A stretch of DNA of 64,000 bases from Candidatus Binatia bacterium (GCA_963664015.2 CAXXLF010000002.1:160001-224000), one strand, 5' to 3'. Numbered from the stretch's first letter, positions 4,736 to 40,134 are shown. Numbers and translations: made by a program. The notes: a model not told the origin generated them from the sequence alone.

Positions 4736-5086
4736 TCAGCGAAGATAGACTGCAATGTCCGGAATCGCTTTTCTGAGGTGCGGAAAGGCCGGCATGGCAA
4801 CAGACTTGCGCTTGGGAACATAACCAAGAGGATATTTTCGGTGGAGGATTCGGGCCTCCAGTAAAACCTGGGAAGATCCTTTAAGGGCTGGTCCCGTTGG
4901 TCCATCCTTCGCCGGGTCCCTGTTGTGGCAGGGGGTACAGTTTACTAGGAAGAGTTTCCTTCCCCGGTCCGGATTGGGGCCTTGGGTCGATGCTGTCTTG
5001 TTATTCGAATCCCCGAAACAAGCCATCAGGCCCATTACGAGACAAAGAGAACTCAGAGAAAGATATATAGAAGTTCGACCGAGCAC
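4736..5086 (-). CDS. monoheme cytochrome c, probable lipoprotein
   Basis: Hydrophobic N-terminus with LMAC lipobox-like motif; CTPCH heme site; distal MPAF. Confidence 0.85.
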   Translation of the reverse strand: MLGRTSIYLSLSSLCLVMGLMACFGDSNNKTASTQGPNPDRGRKLFLVNCTPCHNRDPAKDGPTGPALKGSSQVLLEARILHRKYPLGYVPKRKSVAMPAFPHLRKAIPDIAVYLR

Positions 5087-5179
5087 GCTAGAAATTTAGC
5101 CTACCTCAATTTACATCGCAACATCCGGAATCCCCCTCCTGTGCCAAAAGTGACAACCGTTCGACCCCCGATTCATTCA

Positions 5180-6175
5180 TTATCCGGCCAAATCGGGCAC
5201 CTCGACCAATTGGGAGGGGTTTCGGATGTCTTGCTTCCAAAGCTCAAGTAATTTCTTAGCAATTGGACCGGGCCGGCCGGTACCGATAGTCCGATTGTCC
5301 CACTCGACAACGGGTACAATTTTAATTGTACTACCAAAAAGAAGCATCTCTGCCGCCGCGTAACCTTCTTCAATAGATACATCGTAAAAAACAATATCCT
5401 TCAGGTCTCCCTGCTGAACCAGGCGGCGAGCGAGTTGGGCCATGCGCCGAACGGTGATACCCGTAAGGATAGATTCAAAAGAAGGGTGACGAAGGATTAG
5501 GTCCTTGTCCACAAAAGCAACGTTCATGTTGGAGCCTTCCCCAATCATGCCCTGACGGTCAAGGAAAATTCCGTTTTGGGCCCCCCGGTCCTTCGCATCG
5601 AGGACCACTAGCGCGTTGGGCAGGTAATTCGTCGATTTGATGCGAGCAAAAAACGGAGCCTTTATGGGTATGGAACTGGTTACGACTTTGATTCCTTCAG
5701 TATAATACCACTCCGGATAGCCCGCCTGCCTAAAGATCATTACATAGAAGGCACTGGCGATGCATTCGCTGGAATCCAAGCCGAACCCACCTGGCCCAGC
5801 TGAAAGCCAGTAGCGAACAGAGCCGCCACGGTGCCCACTTGCGGCTGCAGTGTCCAAAATAATCTGCCGTATCCGCTCTGGGTTAAAAGGGAGCGGAATG
5901 CGCGCTAATTTGGCCGAATCGTAAAAGCGCTGTAGATGATCGTCCAGTTGGTAAAGCCTGCCATCAATCAACGTGGCGGTATCGAAAATACCATGGCCGC
6001 GATGCACCATGTGATCGTCAAGGGGAATGAGCATCAGAGCCGGATCGGTGACAATCCCTTCGATCCGGCTGGAGTACATGGCAAAGAAATTCCCCGCATT
6101 GGAATGAACCGCCCGCCGTAATCCATCGACTGCTTGTTGGGTTGTAAAAAGCGGGGTTTTCACAACACTCGGCAT
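5180..6175 (-). CDS. class IV PLP aminotransferase (D-amino-acid transaminase/ADC lyase type)
   Basis: DDHMVHRGHGIFDT, KSTNYLPN (PLP Lys), EGSNMN, ILTGIT. Confidence 0.9.
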   Translation of the reverse strand: MPSVVKTPLFTTQQAVDGLRRAVHSNAGNFFAMYSSRIEGIVTDPALMLIPLDDHMVHRGHGIFDTATLIDGRLYQLDDHLQRFYDSAKLARIPLPFNPERIRQIILDTAAASGHRGGSVRYWLSAGPGGFGLDSSECIASAFYVMIFRQAGYPEWYYTEGIKVVTSSIPIKAPFFARIKSTNYLPNALVVLDAKDRGAQNGIFLDRQGMIGEGSNMNVAFVDKDLILRHPSFESILTGITVRRMAQLARRLVQQGDLKDIVFYDVSIEEGYAAAEMLLFGSTIKIVPVVEWDNRTIGTGRPGPIAKKLLELWKQDIRNPSQLVEVPDLAG

Positions 6176-6338
6176 ACGTCTTTTCCCCTTAAAAAACGGT
6201 AAGCATTCCATAAATAAATTTTAAACCGGACCATAGAAGACAATACGTGCACGAATTGTATGGATGGCTTAGCTCTCGCCCGCGGTCTGAATTCAAGCTA
6301 CCAGCGAGAGGATACGTACAAATCAGAAGGAGCCTTTT

Positions 6339-6563
6339 CTAGGTTCGCTGATACCTGCGGGCGAAGAAACGCGCTCCAAAAAAACCGATAATTCCGACGA
6401 ATATCATGACCAGCCCAATGGATATCGCTCCGGACTTTGCATCCGTCGAGTATGCTGAGATAATAACGAAAAGCCCCAACCCGGCCACAAGACCAAGGCT
6501 ATGCTGTATTGCAGTCCAAATCTTCACAGATTGATACCAATTCACCGTCTGATTTAATTTCAT
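6339..6563 (-). CDS. small two-helix membrane protein, hypothetical
   Basis: Two hydrophobic segments and a basic tail; start uncertain. Confidence 0.4.
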   Translation of the reverse strand: MKLNQTVNWYQSVKIWTAIQHSLGLVAGLGLFVIISAYSTDAKSGAISIGLVMIFVGIIGFFGARFFARRYQRT

Positions 6564-6881
6564 ACCACAATGGAGGCACAAAGCAATGAAGAGAATGAGA
6601 ATCCCTGACACCACAGGCCCAAAACACCCTAGCGCTCGGTTATCCGCCTTCCCAGACGACCATGGGAGCCTACTCGGTGGTAGCAGCACAGCCACGCAGG
6701 CTGGATAAGCCCATGGGGAATGGGTCAGTCGGCCTCTCAGACCTTCGTTGGCCATATTCGATTTCGGTCAGCGACGGCCGAGTCTCAAGACCTGAATGTG
6801 GGCGCATCGTGGAATTCCCCGAAGAAATACGGCTGGAAGGCCCAGGAGGCTTTATTTTCGTTCCGGAGGATATCTGGATTG

Positions 6882-7495
6882 CTAGCGGTGTGCCAAGTTC
6901 AATGGCATGAATTGATACGTTCTATGGAACCTAAAACTTGAGGTGACTTCAAGCAGGATCAATAGGTTAGAAACAAGCGCCTTGAAATAAGCCGGGATCG
7001 ATCGAATACGGGCGAGGTGACTTCGACGTCCAGTCGACGTGTGTTCTTTGTCGCCATTCAAGATCTGATTGATCCCTTCCATAAGTTGCCTCTTAGTCAA
7101 CCGCATAGGAATATAACAATCTGCCCCTGACTTATAGCCCTCCAGTGTGTTTTCAAACTGAATCTTTGCCGTAACCATAATGACCGGTATCGTAGCCGTT
7201 TCGGGGGAACCTTTCAGTCGGATCAGTACTTCGAATCCATGCATGTGGGGCATCATAACATCAAGAATGATCAGGTCGGGGTTTTTCTCTCCCAGGGAAG
7301 TAAACAGTTGGCGACCACTGTAGGCACAGAGGACATTGAATCCATTGTGCTCGAGAATTAGCCTGAGAATGGTGACCAGATCCGGGTCGTCGTCAAGAAC
7401 GAAGATGGTCTGTTTCTCGTGGGCTTTTTAACCACCAGGGAAGGGCTTTCTGCTTTTGCCGTCCACTTCTCTATGCTCATCCAATTGTCTCCCAT
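6882..7495 (-). pseudogene. degenerate single-domain response regulator (REC)
   Basis: Frame reads QTIFVLDDDPD...PDLIILDVMMP...IMVTAK. In-frame TAA at 7428-7430 separates it from any start codon, and the conserved KP is replaced by IPMR. Confidence 0.65.
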
Positions 7496-7517
7496 AAGTC
7501 TAGATGGATCAATGAGA

Positions 7518-7534
7518 AGCTAGAAATGTGCCAA
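7518..7534 (-). promoter_or_regulatory. putative sigma-54 -24/-12 promoter
   Basis: TTGGCAC-ATTTC-TAGCT on the minus strand (GG-N10-GC), upstream of the REC gene. Confidence 0.5.
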
Positions 7535-8399
7535 AGGGTTGGGCGGCCAACGCTCTCTAATTAATTTTAGGAGTTTCAGGGATTTATCCAACATGCTGAA
7601 AGGATTGTCCAATGCGATCCTTACCGGGGTTGCAGTGGGATTGTTACAAATTGTGTCGACTCGTCACCTATTTTACCATCGTGCTACGATTGATACGGTC
7701 GGTAAAGTCCCCGTATGCACAGGCTCCGGTTACTAGGATGTACAGGATAAAACAGGGGGGGGGCCTAAGCAAGGAACCGATAGACACCGTGAAACCGTCT
7801 AATATGGAAACACCTGATTCAATCTGGCCTAGTCTCGCGCGTTCCTTTCACATCCGCATTTACCACTAACAGCGCAACTACTCTAATTTTCAATGGATTC
7901 CTGTCTGGCATAACTTTGGCTTTAGTGTAGAGGAAGACAGCGCCGAAAATGAATAGCGCAGACAAGGATAGCAAACAAGGATCAAGAAATACTTTTACGA
8001 TTTCATCGAATATTCGGGACTTATCTCTATCACCTGGTATTTTGGAATTTTGTAAAAGCACCCCGAAATAATCATTCCTCTCCTTGTTCTCTGGATCGCA
8101 GAAGGCGAGATTCATAACCTGTTTAACAGAGTACGCTAGATAAGTAATCTGTACAGTTCTCCCCTGCCCTTAGGCTTCCCTGCCGCCGCACACGCCTTAC
8201 AATCATTTCACTAACCAACGGTATTTACGACAACTTGCAGCCTTCTGCTACAACGCACCTGATCGTTGAGAGGAGAAGGGATCCATCTGCCAGAACCGTA
8301 GAGAAAAGAAGCAGCCTGTTCCCCCGGCAAGTTTTTACGAGCTTTTGACTATGGTTTCTTTGATTTCATCACTGGAATTGCCCGAAGCGCCCTCCTTCG

Positions 8400-8469
8400 C
8401 TTGCCCCGTGGAGTAGTTTTTTACTCGGGGGTTCTCATCTTGATCGTGGGAAGTACTCCACGGGGCGAG
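8400..8469. repeat. small inverted-repeat element, copy 1 (GCCCCGTGGAGTA-N38-TACTCCACGGGGC)
   Basis: 13-bp perfect arms at 8403-8415 and 8454-8466; second copy at 45360-45423. Confidence 0.8.
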
Positions 8470-34801: not shown

Positions 34802-35558
34802 TTAAGACGTCCAAACGCCCTTTGGGTCATATTTTCTCACGGCGGCGATCTCATCCATCGAAGGCGGAGTGGTTTCTTGAATCTCATCTGCAGGTTTTAG
34901 GGTCCAGGCCGTTTCGCGTTGGATCTCCTGAACCGTGCCACCAAGGTGATCGGAGCTCAGAACCATTTCACGGCTCGTGGAATCAAATGAAAAGATTCCT
35001 AGGCTCGTAATGACGCGACTGGGTCCTCCACCTCTAAGACCCTGCTTTTGTCGCCAATCATAACCGCTACCGTATCCTGGTGAGGTCATAAAGTGGACCT
35101 TAGGGGAAAACCGACGTCTCTCATGATTCATGATAATAATGCATCGGCCCGCCAGGGCCGCGATGTCTGCGGCCCCACCACTCCTGGGAAGCCGAGTTCG
35201 CTTCATTCGGTCTGCGACCCAGTGGGTGTTCAGGTTGCCCAACTGATCCACCTCGGCTCCACCGATAAATCCCAATTCGACTCGTCCGCTCTGAAGCAGA
35301 CCCATCACATCCAACAGGCCGCCGCAGGAGAGGGAACGGGCCACGTTGGGAGGATCGCTCATGGTGAAGATGGGGGTCCAGGGCGGGCCAATCCCGGATC
35401 ACCCCGTTTTCAAAGATTCCTATCGTCGTAGGGACGTGAAGTTCCTTTGCGACAACGAACCCAAGCAGAGGCAGCCGCATGCCGACAAAGGCCTTTTCCC
35501 CGTCGTGGATCTCACGAGCGGCGGCCACAACCATCAATTCTCTACGCGTATAATCCAT
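34802..35558 (-). pseudogene. gctB: glutaconate-type CoA-transferase beta subunit, frameshifted
   Basis: N-part ELMVVAAARE...FVGMRLP...FENG and C-part GGAEVDQLGNLN...GGAADIA are in different frames; the shift maps to a G5 run at 35372-35376. Confidence 0.8.
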
Positions 35559-35560
35559 CG

Positions 35561-36471
35561 TCAAAGGCCGAAATTAACGGGTAGCGGGAGTAGTTCGGCC
35601 CGTGGCTTGAGGTTAGCCACCCGTTTTTGACCCAGTCGTTGAAGAAACTCCGAATGATCCCTAATGCCGAGCACCCAGTTATCCAGCCAACGCAAAGATT
35701 CGTCCATGCTTCGGGATTGCTTGTGGTAATCAAAGAAAAAATAGTCATCCCGACCAACGTAATCTTGCGTGGGCGAGGCATGGGAAGCAAAGGGTTCATG
35801 AACAACCCTGGATACGACAAATCCGGGGATGACCGTACGGTTGGGATCCGTAAGGATCTCTTCGTGAGTTACGATCTCCTCACAGGTCAGGATCACCCTT
35901 CGGGCCGCCATTGCCGCTTCCTGCACAACTCCTAGATTGCCCCAGAGATGGGCGTTACGCTCGGGGTCGCCCTCTGGACATGAAGAATGGCAACATCGGG
36001 AACAATGGACCGAACGACCAAAAGCTCCTCACCGGTATACGGACAACGGAGCGGTTTAAACTGGGTGTCGTGGCTAAAAGCGCTTTCCCGGATCGTCTGA
36101 GTTGGCAGGAAAGGTAATCCAATCGCTGCAGCCTTGAGACCCACGCGCAAGGTAAAATTTGAATGTTCCTCAATTTCCAATGGGCCGGGTATTTTTTCCT
36201 CCATGGCCCGTGTAAAGTTATGCCCCAAGCCTGCCGCCACATTTCCAACCCAGGCTGTGAGGACCTTTTTCGCACATCCGGCCCCTATGAGTTGATCAAA
36301 CTGAATATCGGAAATTGGGGCGATCAGCGTCAGGTTCCTTTTATTCTGCCTAACGATTTCATGACTAGCCGCGAATGGGATCAGAGATTCAAGCCCACAG
36401 CCCATAGCGACCGACATGCCATCCACAATTTCTTCGCCAATTGCCTCCTGCATTGAGCAGAGTTTCTCCAT
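35561..36471 (-). pseudogene. gctA: glutaconate-type CoA-transferase alpha subunit, frameshifted
   Basis: IPFAASHEIVRQ, DQLIGAG, CPYTGE, PDVAILHVQRA, then a frameshift near 35967 into GNAHLWG-like...EEIV...DPNRTVIPG. Confidence 0.8.
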
Positions 36472-36523
36472 GGCCCTTCTATCTATCTGTTCATTTAAAA
36501 TCGGAACTTCCTAGTTTAAGGTC

Positions 36524-37744
36524 TTATCTAACGCCATCGGATTTCAGTTTAGCGATTAGGAAAGCTTGATCCCTATCTCCCTTGGTGCTGTTACATGCCC
36601 CGCAGAGCAGTTGCAGGTTGTCCAAATGATCGCTCCCACCCTTACTCTGAGGAACCATGTGGTCCACCGTGAAATTGCGGAAGGGGAAGAACACCCTGCA
36701 ACCTCCGCACAGACCCTCTTGCTTGCCGAATAGTTGATGCTTGTGGGTCCGGTATCTTGGCAATTCTCCCTGGTCCGTCCGCTTCGGTATGTCGGATCGG
36801 CGGATCGGCTTGAAGTTGTGGAATAGGTCAATCTCCTTACGGATTCGTACCTGCACAAGATCGACTGCTTTCTCAGAAATGTCGATGCCTACCCACTGAC
36901 GGCCCAGACGTTCGGCTGCGACACAGGCCGTGGCGCACCCGGCGAAGGGGTCTAGCACCATATCACCATCGTTGGAGCTGGCCTGGATGATACGGGCCAG
37001 CAGGGCTAAGGGTTTTTGTGTAGGGTATCCGACCCGTTCTTTAGCGTTCGGGTTTATTATAGAAATCTCCCACCAATCGGGACACGGACTCTTGGCTTCA
37101 CTGTCTGTGGACGTTGCCAGCCTCATGCCATCTTGGAAAACGGCCTGCTGCTTTTTCCCCTTCCACCGCTTCATGGTGCCCTTCGACACCGGAACATACT
37201 GCGGGTTGAACGTCGCAAGGTCAGCATTGGAGTAGAAGAGGATGGTGTCGTGGTTTCTAACGAATTGTTTAGCTTCAACAGACCATTTCCTGTAGCACCA
37301 AGAAACCTCATTTCTAAACTCTCTCACTCCGAATACTGCATCCATGAGCAGCTTCAGGTAATGGCTCGCCGTGGGATCGCAGTGAAGGTAGACGGAGCCG
37401 GTGTCTTTGAGTATCCGCCGCATCTCTAGCAACCGGACGGCCATCATGATCAGATAGGATTTCATGCTGTCCCCATTCGCCAACCCCGCCGAACCGATAA
37501 CTGAGTACATAGTCGGGTTCTGCTCGGCGATTTCCCCGTGCCAAGCCACGTCTACATCGTCAAGGGTCCAGGTGTCCTTGAAGGCCGCTCCGGCTGCCTC
37601 CGAACCGATAGGAGCACTGTAGTTGCGGTCACTTTTGAACGGCGGGTCCAGGTAGATCAGGTCAACACTCTCGGAGTTCATACCCCGCATGATGTCCAAG
37701 TTGTCCCCGGTCCACATGGTTCGGTTTTTCCAGTTTGGTTCCAT
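36524..37744 (-). CDS. N6A/N4C DNA methyltransferase (beta class) fused to a C-terminal HNH endonuclease domain
   Basis: GDNL, YLDPPF (motif IV), GYPTQKP and DPFAGCAT (motif I), followed by CGGC...VDHMVPQSKGGSDHLDNLQLLCGACNSTKG. Confidence 0.9.
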   Translation of the reverse strand: MEPNWKNRTMWTGDNLDIMRGMNSESVDLIYLDPPFKSDRNYSAPIGSEAAGAAFKDTWTLDDVDVAWHGEIAEQNPTMYSVIGSAGLANGDSMKSYLIMMAVRLLEMRRILKDTGSVYLHCDPTASHYLKLLMDAVFGVREFRNEVSWCYRKWSVEAKQFVRNHDTILFYSNADLATFNPQYVPVSKGTMKRWKGKKQQAVFQDGMRLATSTDSEAKSPCPDWWEISIINPNAKERVGYPTQKPLALLARIIQASSNDGDMVLDPFAGCATACVAAERLGRQWVGIDISEKAVDLVQVRIRKEIDLFHNFKPIRRSDIPKRTDQGELPRYRTHKHQLFGKQEGLCGGCRVFFPFRNFTVDHMVPQSKGGSDHLDNLQLLCGACNSTKGDRDQAFLIAKLKSDGVR

Positions 37745-38647
37745 TCAATCTTCTGTGTCCGGCAAGTCTAGATCAAGATTTGTATTAATTCTGGGTCGCC
37801 ACCTTTGCAGTCTACGCTTAAACTCACTCCATGCCCGTTCTGGGTCGTGATGGGTGACAGTATTCATGATGGCAATTGCGCCATGTAGATGTTGCATTAA
37901 TTCCAGATAGCCCACTTCCCTAGTCAGGTGTTGATGATGCTTGCCTTCCCTTTCTCCACTCTCCATCCTTGGGTTGAATAATTCCAGTTGATCTAGTAAC
38001 CCAGGCGCTAGTCTTGCGTACACAATGTCATTTGTGTAATAGCCTACGACTTGTGGTCTATTGATATTCATTCCTTGCCATGCCCACCCCTTGAGCCTAA
38101 AGATTTCCTTGTAAAACTCATCAGGGAATGTCTTGGCCCATGCTGCCCGTGTAGGCGTCAGGTATCGGTCCAGAATCGCTTGTAATGCCGCTTTGTCTCT
38201 GATTTCCTGATAGTTAGTGGCCTCATCGACTAATGCTGCGATTCCTACATGAGCAAATCCACGCAACAAGATTTCAGCTTGTTCTGCTATATGCGTCTGT
38301 GACTGATATAACGCATTCGCGTCACGGGCTTTAAGATATACCTCACAGACACCCGGCAAAATCTCTGCCGAATATCCAAAGATCAGATGTTTTTCGAACC
38401 AAAACTGTACAACACTTGTCGCCATCATTAAGTCTTTGGATATAAAGGGTTTTAGGTTGTTTTGGGCTAGAAATGGGGGCAGTTTGTCGCCACCCCCTGT
38501 CCCCCCTCTAATTGAACCAGACCTGCCTAAAGCACCTAAGACACCACGCTGACTCAAAATCCTGCGTCCATCAGCTAGTACAAAACATGTGAATCTTATA
38601 TCTCCTATCTTCAATTCCCCACTATGGGTAGCCTGTGGGACGTTCAT
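37745..38647 (-). CDS. P63C domain-containing protein
   Basis: ATHSGELKIG...DGRRILSQRG, VGIAALVDEATNYQ, WAKTFPDEFY, TNDIVYARLAPG, KHHQHLT. Confidence 0.88.
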   Translation of the reverse strand: MNVPQATHSGELKIGDIRFTCFVLADGRRILSQRGVLGALGRSGSIRGGTGGGDKLPPFLAQNNLKPFISKDLMMATSVVQFWFEKHLIFGYSAEILPGVCEVYLKARDANALYQSQTHIAEQAEILLRGFAHVGIAALVDEATNYQEIRDKAALQAILDRYLTPTRAAWAKTFPDEFYKEIFRLKGWAWQGMNINRPQVVGYYTNDIVYARLAPGLLDQLELFNPRMESGEREGKHHQHLTREVGYLELMQHLHGAIAIMNTVTHHDPERAWSEFKRRLQRWRPRINTNLDLDLPDTED

Positions 38648-39534
38648 GCTGCCACCCCCAATCCAAGATTGATGGTGGAGTTAAAGGCCAGGAGAGGGTT
38701 TACCTTGCGTAGATTGTAGCGGTAGCAGAACTCATCAACATAGCGTTGCAGGTGCTTTCGGCTCACGCTGTGGAACTGGCCGAACATACCGCGCTTCAAG
38801 AGAGCCCAAAATCCCTCAATCGTATTGGTGTGAATGTCGCCGTCTACGTACCATTCTTGATGCTTGATGACGGAATGAGGCAGAACCTTGGACATACTGA
38901 GATAACCCTTGTATTCATCTGTGATTAAACGGGTGGTTGATGTATCAATCTTGCTTCGTACGAAGGCGCGCATGTGTCTGCCCTTCATCTTATCCTTAGC
39001 AACGGACTTAGCTGTAACCTTCCCCCCACGCTCCACAGCCCCGATTACCGGAGCTTTAGGGGTCCCGCGTCCTCTTTTGTGACTACCGCCAGGTCCATCA
39101 CCTGGGGTCCCTTTTCTTGGTTTCCCCCCTACATAAGTCTCATCCATCTCAACGATGCCTGTTAGCATCCCGCGTTGCTCGCTTTGAGTCATGGATTTAC
39201 GGATCTGCATAGCGATCCTCCAAGCCGTGTTTTTATTCACCTTGAGATCGCGGGAAAGCTGAAGTGATGAAAGCCCCTTCCTAGCGTTCAATACCAGCAT
39301 GACTGCAAGGAACCACTTTTGAAGCGGCATATGGGTATGGTGAAATATCGTGCCGACCATCACACTAAAAGATGTTTTACAATCGTAACAGCGGTGGCGA
39401 TGCTGGTTGCGTGCTGTATTGATTGATCGGCAATAAGGACAAACTGGCTTATCCTTCCAGCGGGCCTTTTCCAGGTGAGCTATGCAATCTTTTTGGGTTG
39501 GAAACTGCTCGAAAATCCTTGTAATATTCATCAT
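38644..39534 (-). CDS. IS1595-family DDE transposase
   Basis: Zn ribbon CPYC...CYDC, HTH, EMDETYVGG, ITDEYKGY, HTNTIEGFW, YVDEFCYRYN. Confidence 0.96.
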   Translation of the reverse strand: MMNITRIFEQFPTQKDCIAHLEKARWKDKPVCPYCRSINTARNQHRHRCYDCKTSFSVMVGTIFHHTHMPLQKWFLAVMLVLNARKGLSSLQLSRDLKVNKNTAWRIAMQIRKSMTQSEQRGMLTGIVEMDETYVGGKPRKGTPGDGPGGSHKRGRGTPKAPVIGAVERGGKVTAKSVAKDKMKGRHMRAFVRSKIDTSTTRLITDEYKGYLSMSKVLPHSVIKHQEWYVDGDIHTNTIEGFWALLKRGMFGQFHSVSRKHLQRYVDEFCYRYNLRKVNPLLAFNSTINLGLGVAA

Positions 39535-39565
39535 GCTACGTCCTTTCCCATTGACTATAGGAAGG

Positions 39566-39594
39566 ATCGTACCATGAATCTAAATAGATGTCAA
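39566..39594 (-). promoter_or_regulatory. inward sigma-70 promoter of the IS
   Basis: TTGACA (39589-39594, overlapping the TIR), 17-bp spacer, TGn-TACGAT (39566-39571); GAAAGGA RBS at 39541-39547. Confidence 0.75.
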
Positions 39595-40134
39595 GACCTT
39601 AAACTAGGAAGTTCCGTTTAAAATTGCGCAAATCCTATCACTTATAAATGTGTAAATCCCACTCTTGGCAGCTGTTCGCCTCATATGGCTTTCCAACCGT
39701 CGGTTTAAAACAGGAGGATACCATTTCTTGGATTTTGGTGTTCTCATGGATTGACGTGCTCGCCTGTCGTCATGCTCTCGAATTCGTTCACGGGCATACC
39801 CAAGGAACGCAAGATCTAGTGGTAATAGGCAGGAAAACACAATATCGACCCTACGGCCCATCAGGGCTCCAAATGTTCAGCGGAGAGTGCCCTAGGAAGC
39901 TTACCCAGTTATTGGTAAGTTATTGATTTGTAGTCATATTCGCAGCTTATGATTTAAGCAATACGCTGGCGAACGCTACTTTTGGCCCCCGTGGCTCTCC
40001 CCGAACCCACTTATGCACAACTTAATGAACAGATTTAGTGGAAACTTTAACGCCAGGTCAGTCAAAAAAGTAAGGATTTGGCCGCCTTGTTTTCCAACCG
40101 TGGAAATGCTACGTGAACTTCCTGGATTTAAACC

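Follow-up and report, generated by a model that had tools for sequence, protein, structure and literature searches.

A small IS1595-family transposon with a transposase-coupled P63C gene and a putative restriction-modification passenger

Introduction

How much of a very small transposon belongs to its transposition machinery, and how much is carried as a passenger? The question is raised by a stretch of 64,000 nucleotides from Candidatus Binatia bacterium (GCA_963664015.2, CAXXLF010000002.1:160001-224000), referred to here as the window, in which an insertion sequence (IS) of the IS1595 family encloses three closely packed genes. These encode a transposase (tnp), a protein with a P63C domain, and a DNA methyltransferase fused to an HNH nuclease domain (MTase-HNH). 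The original prediction, made from the window alone, described the last two as a cargo operon. The analysis reported here indicates that the element is an intact autonomous transposon carrying extra genes, that P63C goes with the transposase and is not cargo, and that the MTase-HNH gene occupies a variable passenger slot, in which genes for restriction and modification (RM) recur.

Members of the IS1595 family that carry passengers were reportedly described by Siguier, Gagnevin and Chandler in 2009 as transporter IS (tIS), and the P63C domain is said to have been defined by Iyer, Koonin and Aravind in 2002. Passenger-carrying IS1595 members are by now an established class, and ISNha5 carries transcription regulators, according to the available text of PMC11891212. 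In the portions of the searched literature that mention the P63C domain, it figures in gene lists only. A literature search, which did not extend to the IS and RM databases ISfinder, TnPedia and REBASE, found no paper linking either P63C or the methylase-HNH fusion to IS1595, and the searched literature contained neither a study of a beta-class methylase fused to HNH nor a description of recurring methylase-nuclease cargo in this IS group.

Results

Anatomy of the element

The element proper occupies 36502-39616 (3115 bp) and has perfect 24-bp inverted repeats at both ends. Its features are as follows, in positions of the window.

36494-36501, no strand: left target-site duplication TTTAAAAT, read from the sequence, the same as 39617-39624
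36502-36525, plus strand: cargo-end terminal inverted repeat, 24 bp, 0 mismatches against the other arm
36524-37744, minus strand: passenger gene, MTase-HNH (beta-class N4/N6 methylase with C-terminal HNH nuclease), 406 aa, from the gene call, domains and homologue alignment
37745-38647, minus strand: P63C-domain protein, 300 aa, conserved second gene of the IS group, from PF10546, locus comparison and a fold model
38644-39534, minus strand: IS1595-family DDE transposase (tnp) with N-terminal zinc ribbon, 296 aa, from Pfam, NCBIfam and invariant residues
39566-39594, minus strand: promoter-like site, a consensus match only
39593-39616, minus strand: transposase-end terminal inverted repeat, 24 bp, 0 mismatches; contigs from two other studies diverge after 39616
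39617-39624, no strand: right target-site duplication TTTAAAAT, read from the sequence

The window contains exactly two copies of the repeat CGGAACTTCCTAGTTTAAGGTCTT, one at 36502-36525 (+) and the other at 39593-39616 (-), both free of mismatches; none of 100 shuffles gave a match even when up to 3 mismatches were allowed. The 8-bp duplication TTTAAAAT is identical on both outer sides. Within the element the genes are packed end to end: tnp ends and P63C begins within a shared ATGA, the TGA stop of P63C directly abuts the ATG of the MTase-HNH gene, and the stop codon of the latter (36524-36526) reaches 2 nt into the inverted repeat. The longest non-coding DNA is a 58-nt leader that separates the right repeat from the start codon of tnp (ATG). 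It contains most of the only sigma-70-like match in 36300-39900 (TTGACA, 17 nt, TACGAT, and a TG upstream; minus strand, 39594-39566). The -35 hexamer of this putative promoter extends 2 nt into the inner end of the repeat. Base composition is unremarkable, at 0.47-0.54 inside the element and 0.46-0.55 in the adjoining DNA. An Rfam scan (E<=1) gave only a sub-threshold match to a glutamine riboswitch, outside the element, and a tRNA scan gave none.

The transposase matches PF12762 with 113.8 bits (cut-off 27), the zinc ribbon PF12760 with 33.5 bits (cut-off 25.4), and the NCBIfam model for IS1595 transposases, NF033547, with 198.3 bits against a cut-off of 75. In an alignment of 16 sequences C32, C35, C49 and C52 are invariant, as are D131, D206 and E240, and the last three probably form the catalytic triad. 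The closest plasmid matches are merely 41% identical and are annotated as IS1595 family transposase. A transposase of the DDE type, an N-terminal zinc ribbon, and inverted repeats with an 8-bp duplication are the characteristics of the IS1595 family, and all are present here. Re-reading of the repeats, domains and gene junctions thus bears out the original description of a complete IS1595-family element with three coupled genes. A tIS also carries genes dispensable for transposition; here these are recognized by comparison of elements alone, as described next.

P63C is coupled to the transposase

The P63C domain (PF10546) is matched at residues 158-250 with 100.6 bits (cut-off 26.1), and is found in 35 out of 35 aligned homologues. 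The family is large: a word-indexed search gave 2896 proteins at E<=0.001, and an exhaustive search at least 4673 clusters at 50% identity. The genomic surroundings were surveyed at 80 loci, fetched through the P63C alignment. At 28 of these, from many phyla, P63C is immediately preceded by an IS1595 transposase on the same strand; judging by the record titles, all 28 come from metagenome-assembled or uncultured genomes. A further 14 loci have a divergent IS1-like DDE gene upstream of P63C, and five more have IS1595 genes or fragments in other positions (including L045), so that 47 loci are linked to IS in total. The other 33 have no transposase nearby, with the queries used.

Inverted repeats could be defined for 18 of the 28 IS1595-linked loci. 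Their common pattern, CGGAAT.TCC.A, spans Pseudomonadota, Acidobacteriota, Gemmatimonadota, Chloroflexota and others. The end consensus of the ISNha5 group, CGGnnTT, would fit the CGGAATTT of these relatives. Perfect 8-bp duplications flank 11 of the 18 elements, plus L045, and the target sites are AT-rich.

In all 17 elements with a full-length transposase, whether or not they hold a methylase, P63C starts between -8 and +10 nt from the transposase stop, and in 10 of them the two genes overlap by ATGA. Three minimal elements with the same ends (L026, L031 and L083; 1.87-2.0 kb) consist of tnp and P63C with no room for a third gene, and two further elements hold merely a short spacer behind P63C. 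Given its coupling to the transposase in sister elements and its presence in minimal ones, P63C is not cargo but a constant partner of the transposase within the group. This takes P63C out of the cargo operon in which it had originally been placed, and leaves the MTase-HNH gene as the passenger, as was originally proposed, given that the minimal sister elements lack a third gene.

The 14 IS1-like DDE genes score 53-96 bits against NF033558, below its cut-off of 100. Five of the 14 elements have inverted repeats, of the form GGTAGTGTCCTAGTTTGAA, and these have the core GTCCTAGTTT in common with the IS1595-type ends. IS1-like P63C elements lie at L094 4928-7043, L041 3960-7485, L048 4871-8664, L034 193-3032 and L033 4874-7902.

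The coupling of the two genes does not mean that they have stayed together. The transposase gene at L076 (probably the same locus as G004:C7, and counted once) is 90% identical to that of the element in DNA and 92% in protein, whereas P63C is merely 44% identical, and the DNA match ends at the tnp/P63C gene boundary. In a tree of 78 P63C sequences, those linked to IS1595, those linked to IS1-like genes and those from elsewhere interleave. Its well-supported branches require the IS1595 label to change at least 9 times, and hosts of different phyla adjoin. In the variant of the element found in runs X6 and X8, too, the two genes differ in their identity, which is about 98% for P63C and about 92% for the transposase. 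Such comparisons show that the modules of this IS group (transposase, P63C and cargo) have been exchanged. For the G004 element no partner end turned up within 14 kb, and a matching end lies on another contig. About 400 nt past its P63C gene is an IS21-type pair of IstA/IstB-like open reading frames (ORFs) (L016 4243-6822).

The slot behind P63C

Twelve distinct elements carry cargo, namely 10 of the 18 with defined repeats, L045, and the element described here. In this count L027/L028 and L092/L093 each count once, and L030 is left out, its extra DNA being a second, truncated transposase. Five of the 12 carry a methylase together with a nuclease: three are HNH fusions, one is a fusion to an Mrr-like nuclease, and one has a separate nuclease.

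The same MTase-HNH fusion, 68-84% identical, is found in L057. It is also found in L045 (4290-8554), a 4263-bp element of a distant IS1595 lineage with a transposase only 35% identical, perfect 27-bp repeats and ATTACTTT as its duplication. The genes of L045 run tnp, ClpP-like and P63C, all three overlapping, with a convergent MTase-HNH. The pairing of P63C with MTase-HNH therefore does recur elsewhere. In L025 a homologous methylase (45% identical) is fused to an Mrr_cat nuclease domain in place of HNH. Finally L090 (about 5028-8467; 3440 bp, 37-nt inverted repeats, duplication TTAATTAA) holds a separate methylase and a 187-aa nuclease, which make up a complete type II RM pair; the nuclease matches the PADLOC model REase_II over its full length (5e-43) and Hpy99I (3fc3, 7e-43).

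Among the remaining elements, L052 carries a gene with a match to the 1TM-TIR defence candidate (7e-9) and L098 a ClpP-like gene, while the cargo of five others consists of ORFs with no family match. The cargo-bearing elements L025, L090, L098, L045 and L092/L093 have their own perfect duplications; those of L092 and L093, which are copies within a single genome, differ from each other. Whole elements thus move together with what they carry. The part that varies among them is the passenger slot behind P63C.

The methylase-HNH enzyme

The passenger protein matches PF01555 with 153.1 bits and PF01844 with 49.3 bits. In an alignment of 24 homologues the catalytic and SAM-binding methylase motifs, DPPF (aa 33-36) and DPFxGCAT (aa 265-272), are invariant, and so are the HNH active-site residues C346, C349, D361, H362, N376, C381, C384 and N385. 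By contrast, the middle region (about aa 150-235) varies in both length and sequence among proteins that are 45-80% identical elsewhere. Methylases of this class have their target-recognition domain there, between the two halves of the methylase. The closest solved relatives are the beta-class adenine methylases MboIIA, CcrM and RsrI, with E-values down to 3e-17. By the rule for the DPPF motif, the enzyme would be expected to methylate adenine at N6 rather than cytosine at N4.

The enzyme has a very large family: E<=1e-20 is reached by every one of the 8000 candidates scored, and the top 120 all combine PF01555 with HNH. In an even phylum sample of 301 genomes, close relatives occur in just two, one of which is the host genome. 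Genome G069 has five copies, which match the methylase part only. Related genomes hold 10 loci with homologues (47-63% identity); none of the 10 has P63C, and at five the gene lies behind a distant IS1595 transposase. MTase-HNH is thus a habitual passenger of IS1595-type genes, found also in prophages, and it and P63C are separate modules that come together in some elements. Nothing shows P63C to be a dedicated partner of the methylase, a role originally suggested for it.

A block of about 2.5 kb recurs with different flanks in related genomes (L239 4795-7410, L240 4499-6976 and L241 3841-5871), and consists of a distant IS1595-type transposase, MTase-HNH and a small conserved ORF (about 60 aa), with no P63C. 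We do not call it an IS, because no inverted repeats were found at it. At L241 a short direct repeat, GGGTAAACT, stands at both ends of the block.

P63C outside insertion sequences

Full-length homologues of the P63C protein, 38-48% identical over 95-99% of its length, occur in phages and small plasmids. In phage 933W the gene (ST933Wp35) lies between a Dam-like methylase and roi (L108 3127-4885); in Gordonia phage Petra and Burkholderia phage DC1 it adjoins an integrase; and in phage SEN34 it is inverted within the nin region. These are moron-like accessory positions in temperate phages. No methylase adjoins P63C in three of these four contexts inspected. On small plasmids the neighbours are Abi, a LlaMI-type enzyme (Acinetobacter plasmid) or a 933-aa methylase, and at L051 P63C stands beside a type ISP enzyme. 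On the Methylorubrum plasmid pMPPM01 (L242 959-7238) the order is an AAA ATPase, then P63C, then the 933-aa methylase. PHROG 2384, to which no function is assigned, matches the protein over its full length, and the P63C part has a weak match to the Ant anti-repressor family.

Some stand-alone P63C genes are flanked by imperfect inverted repeats of 36-54 nt (L053 5923-6979, L078 5906-6952 and L065 5962-6935), which appear to encode the same peptide motif, approximately PE.RSEIA.KAA..RW, on both strands. Numerous homologues have an N-terminal extension of 45-60 aa.

Discussion

A proposed transporter IS of three modules

We consider that the element is best explained, with a probability of roughly 0.6, as a transporter IS made of three exchangeable modules, namely a transposition core, P63C, and a passenger slot occupied by an RM-like enzyme. 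The core would consist of the 24-bp repeats, the promoter-like site abutting the transposase-side repeat, and the zinc-ribbon DDE transposase, which would generate the 8-bp duplications. The second module, P63C, would be translationally coupled to the transposase and yet act independently of it, because the same protein stands alone in temperate phages and small plasmids; it would probably bind DNA, like the mobile-element regulators of the Ant/KilA type. In the third module the single-chain methylase-HNH would work as an RM unit. Its choice of target would lie with the variable middle region; host DNA would receive the methylase's mark, and DNA lacking that mark would be cleaved by the HNH domain. 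The host would thereby gain some defence, and the element would become costly to lose.

An RM function for the cargo of such a mobile element is supported by comparison. The element had originally been read as a defence or epigenetic module, and this part of the prediction gains ground from the methylase-Mrr fusion of L025, the Hpy99I-like pair of L090 and the 1TM-TIR match of L052, all of which would point the same way.

Several points weigh against the three-module reading, and those that concern P63C and the HNH part are given below with the alternative that each favours. The loci were collected via P63C, and are therefore silent on how frequent P63C is among all IS1595 elements. The MTase-HNH gene of L057 has an in-frame stop, and the copies of several relatives are split. 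The host genome (3.5 Mb in 2 contigs) has one full copy of the element, and its MTase-HNH gene is likewise single-copy; neither an empty site nor a second insertion of the exact element was seen. A joint skipping the whole element was absent from the contigs of four runs, although contigs can hide rare variants. The proposed search for other copies, empty sites and variable cargo has thus yielded sister elements with varied cargo, together with a single copy in the genome and no empty site.

The strongest competing explanation is that P63C is a dedicated cofactor or regulator of transposition, binding the ends or the transposase, and not an autonomous module. We regard this as possible but rather doubtful. 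Its coupling in all 17 elements and its presence in minimal ones speak for a cofactor, and tight coupling to transposases of two IS families could mean a role in transposition: at 14 of the 80 loci P63C accompanies the second, IS1-like transposase, and five of these have repeats holding the same core. Against this, P63C has no transposase nearby at 33 of the 80 loci (with the queries used), and full-length homologues stand alone in phages and small plasmids; the interleaving of contexts on the P63C tree and the swapping of P63C behind nearly identical transposases also count against it.

Structural comparison lends the cofactor some support, in that the N-terminal domain has weak matches to DNA-binding folds. 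The AlphaFold model of the protein is a single one of mediocre quality, with a predicted local distance difference test score (pLDDT) of 69.9. Its N-terminal domain was compared by VIA-align, and the matches are weak, the best being 4ye7 (Z 6.0, root-mean-square deviation 3.4 over 95 residues), followed by the APSES domains of Swi6 (2xfv, Z 3.7) and Mbp1 (1bm8, Z 2.8). Foldseek gave nothing with this model at E<=0.001, no Pfam family was matched in the N-terminal half at E<=1, and a profile of P63C (A4, 130 sequences) found nothing among the PDB sequences below E 0.065. On balance an autonomous function that benefits mobile elements, probably through DNA binding, is somewhat favoured for P63C, because it occurs without any transposase nearby. 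It is improbable that P63C does something other than either of these.

The second alternative concerns the enzyme. The methylase-HNH gene may be a phage-type gene picked up by chance, with a protective methylase and an HNH domain for packaging or homing, in which case it would be a hitch-hiker causing neither restriction nor addiction. HNH proteins in phages can serve packaging, and homologues lie after a Mu-type portal gene (L008), after a weak portal match (L010, 34.3 bits, cut-off 39.1) and close to an integrase (L013). The enzyme belongs to a very large, highly conserved family, and 752 phage records match its methylase part, but only five of these cover at least 80% of the fusion, and the end pattern of the element has 0 matches in viral_contigs. 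In related genomes it is an IS1595 transposase, and not phage genes, that precedes five of the 10 homologues. PADLOC, which had been proposed as a check, matches methylase models in MTase-HNH (MTase_II, 1.4e-69) and no restriction-enzyme model, leaving the HNH part without a match. Set against this, the slot holds methylases joined by nucleases of three unrelated types in sister elements, among them a homologue of Hpy99I over its full length. We think the hitch-hiker unlikely.

That P63C and methylase-HNH depend on each other as a single system, in which P63C would control the enzyme or be its toxin or anti-defence partner, as originally read, is very unlikely: the two recur together in three elements, including the distant L045, and P63C outside IS stands beside methylase or restriction genes in 933W, pMPPM01, the Acinetobacter plasmid (LlaMI-type) and L051 (type ISP), but seven of the 12 cargo-bearing elements and all the minimal ones have P63C without a methylase, MTase-HNH is without P63C at all 10 loci in related genomes, and most of the inspected phage contexts have no adjoining methylase.

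Comparison with known systems

The element resembles known IS1595 transporter IS in having a zinc-ribbon DDE transposase, short inverted repeats, an 8-bp duplication, and extra genes within the repeats. It differs from them, as far as the available text on these elements goes, in the coupling of P63C to the transposase and in its methylase-nuclease or RM cargo.

The closest parallels to the enzyme are MmeI and Eco57I, single-chain enzymes of the type IIC/IIG-like kind with a gamma-class methylase and an N-terminal PD-(D/E)xK nuclease. In these too, one polypeptide unites an amino-methyltransferase with a nuclease domain and a target-recognition region that varies, whereas the enzyme described here is predicted to combine a beta-class methylase with a C-terminal HNH domain.

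The PluTI RM unit (PMC2875022) resides on a putative mobile element whose terminal repeats derive from an IS, and is likewise an RM system on a small IS-related unit. The repeats of PluTI are direct, however, it lacks a transposase, and its R and M genes are separate, whereas the present element is autonomous and has its nuclease fused to the methylase. The P63C proteins of phages and plasmids (933W ST933Wp35, PHROG 2384) have the same full-length architecture as the one described here, but stand alone in accessory regions, while here the gene is coupled to a transposase inside an IS.

Known cargo of passenger-carrying IS consists mostly of resistance genes and regulators, whereas here a very small autonomous transposon belongs to a group in which a methylase with a nuclease is recurrent. 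P63C-coupled IS1595 and IS1-like elements appear to ferry RM and other defence-type genes across phyla. If the units are active, IS become a route by which RM specificities and other defence genes pass between phyla, and addiction would be a simple explanation for the persistence of such elements. P63C, a family with no known function, is found here in a compact and genetically tractable setting, and the methylase-HNH family, with its invariant catalytic parts and swappable recognition region, may be a source of new sequence-specific enzymes.

A wider proposal can be offered only tentatively, and we hold it to be less probable than not to be correct in full. The IS1595-type and IS1-like P63C elements may form an unrecognized cross-phylum group, found almost only in uncultured bacteria, of minimal self-mobilizing carriers of RM and defence genes. 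The present element would be among the smallest autonomous mobile RM units known, with a new enzyme design (beta-class methylase, variable recognition region and HNH), and the P63C proteins of phages, plasmids and IS would be tied to DNA methylation and restriction or to conflict between elements.

Insertion site, other copies and solo ends

Only 23 nt separate the element from the start codon (ATG) of a CoA-transferase gene downstream, which reads in the same direction as the element genes, and there is no terminator-like site between the two. Because of this position the CoA-transferase operon would have been cut from its upstream DNA, and it may rely on read-through from the element. Both CoA-transferase genes (34802-36471) appear split into ORFs in different frames, 35932-36471 with 35561-35926 and 35121-35564 with 34802-35362. 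This could reflect decay after the loss of upstream DNA, or indel errors in the assembly.

Contigs from a run of a different study (X3) span both junctions of this very insertion with 100% identity. The recent insertion that was originally proposed is plausible in view of the perfect ends and intact genes; no empty site was seen, however, and X3 has the identical insertion. In runs of two further studies (X6 and X8) a variant of the element is present and the flanks of the window are absent. The variant differs by about 1.3-2.5% in P63C and about 8% in the transposase, and keeps the P63C/methylase junction; a 7479-bp contig of X8 matches 38797-39616, as far as the last base of the repeat, and then runs into unrelated DNA. 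A variant of the element thus also resides in other DNA. An RNA library (X16) gave short contigs on P63C and on the tnp/P63C junction, which we do not count as proof of transcription.

A decayed second element with tnp and P63C, of another lineage (L002/L110), lies outside the window on contig 2, at about 431068-432433. Its tnp remnant is 81% identical in DNA and has frameshifts, and its P63C remnant is 49% identical with a stop; no matching ends were found for it.

The end pattern was found in at least 120 stretches of metagenome_contigs, 80 of which were examined. Nearly all of these 80 are contig-end fragments, solo ends, or pairs resembling miniature inverted-repeat transposable elements (MITEs). 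Only L155 and L183 hold tnp with P63C, and no data on cargo were gained from them. The MITE-like pairs have the same ends 290-500 bp apart and occur in genome G058 (L023/L024, contig 1, 742421-742870) and in metagenome contigs (L122 825-1336, L124 2454-2768, L143 3003-3514 and others). Numerous metagenome contigs break off about 100 nt into an end of this kind, as would be expected if the copy number is high in some communities.

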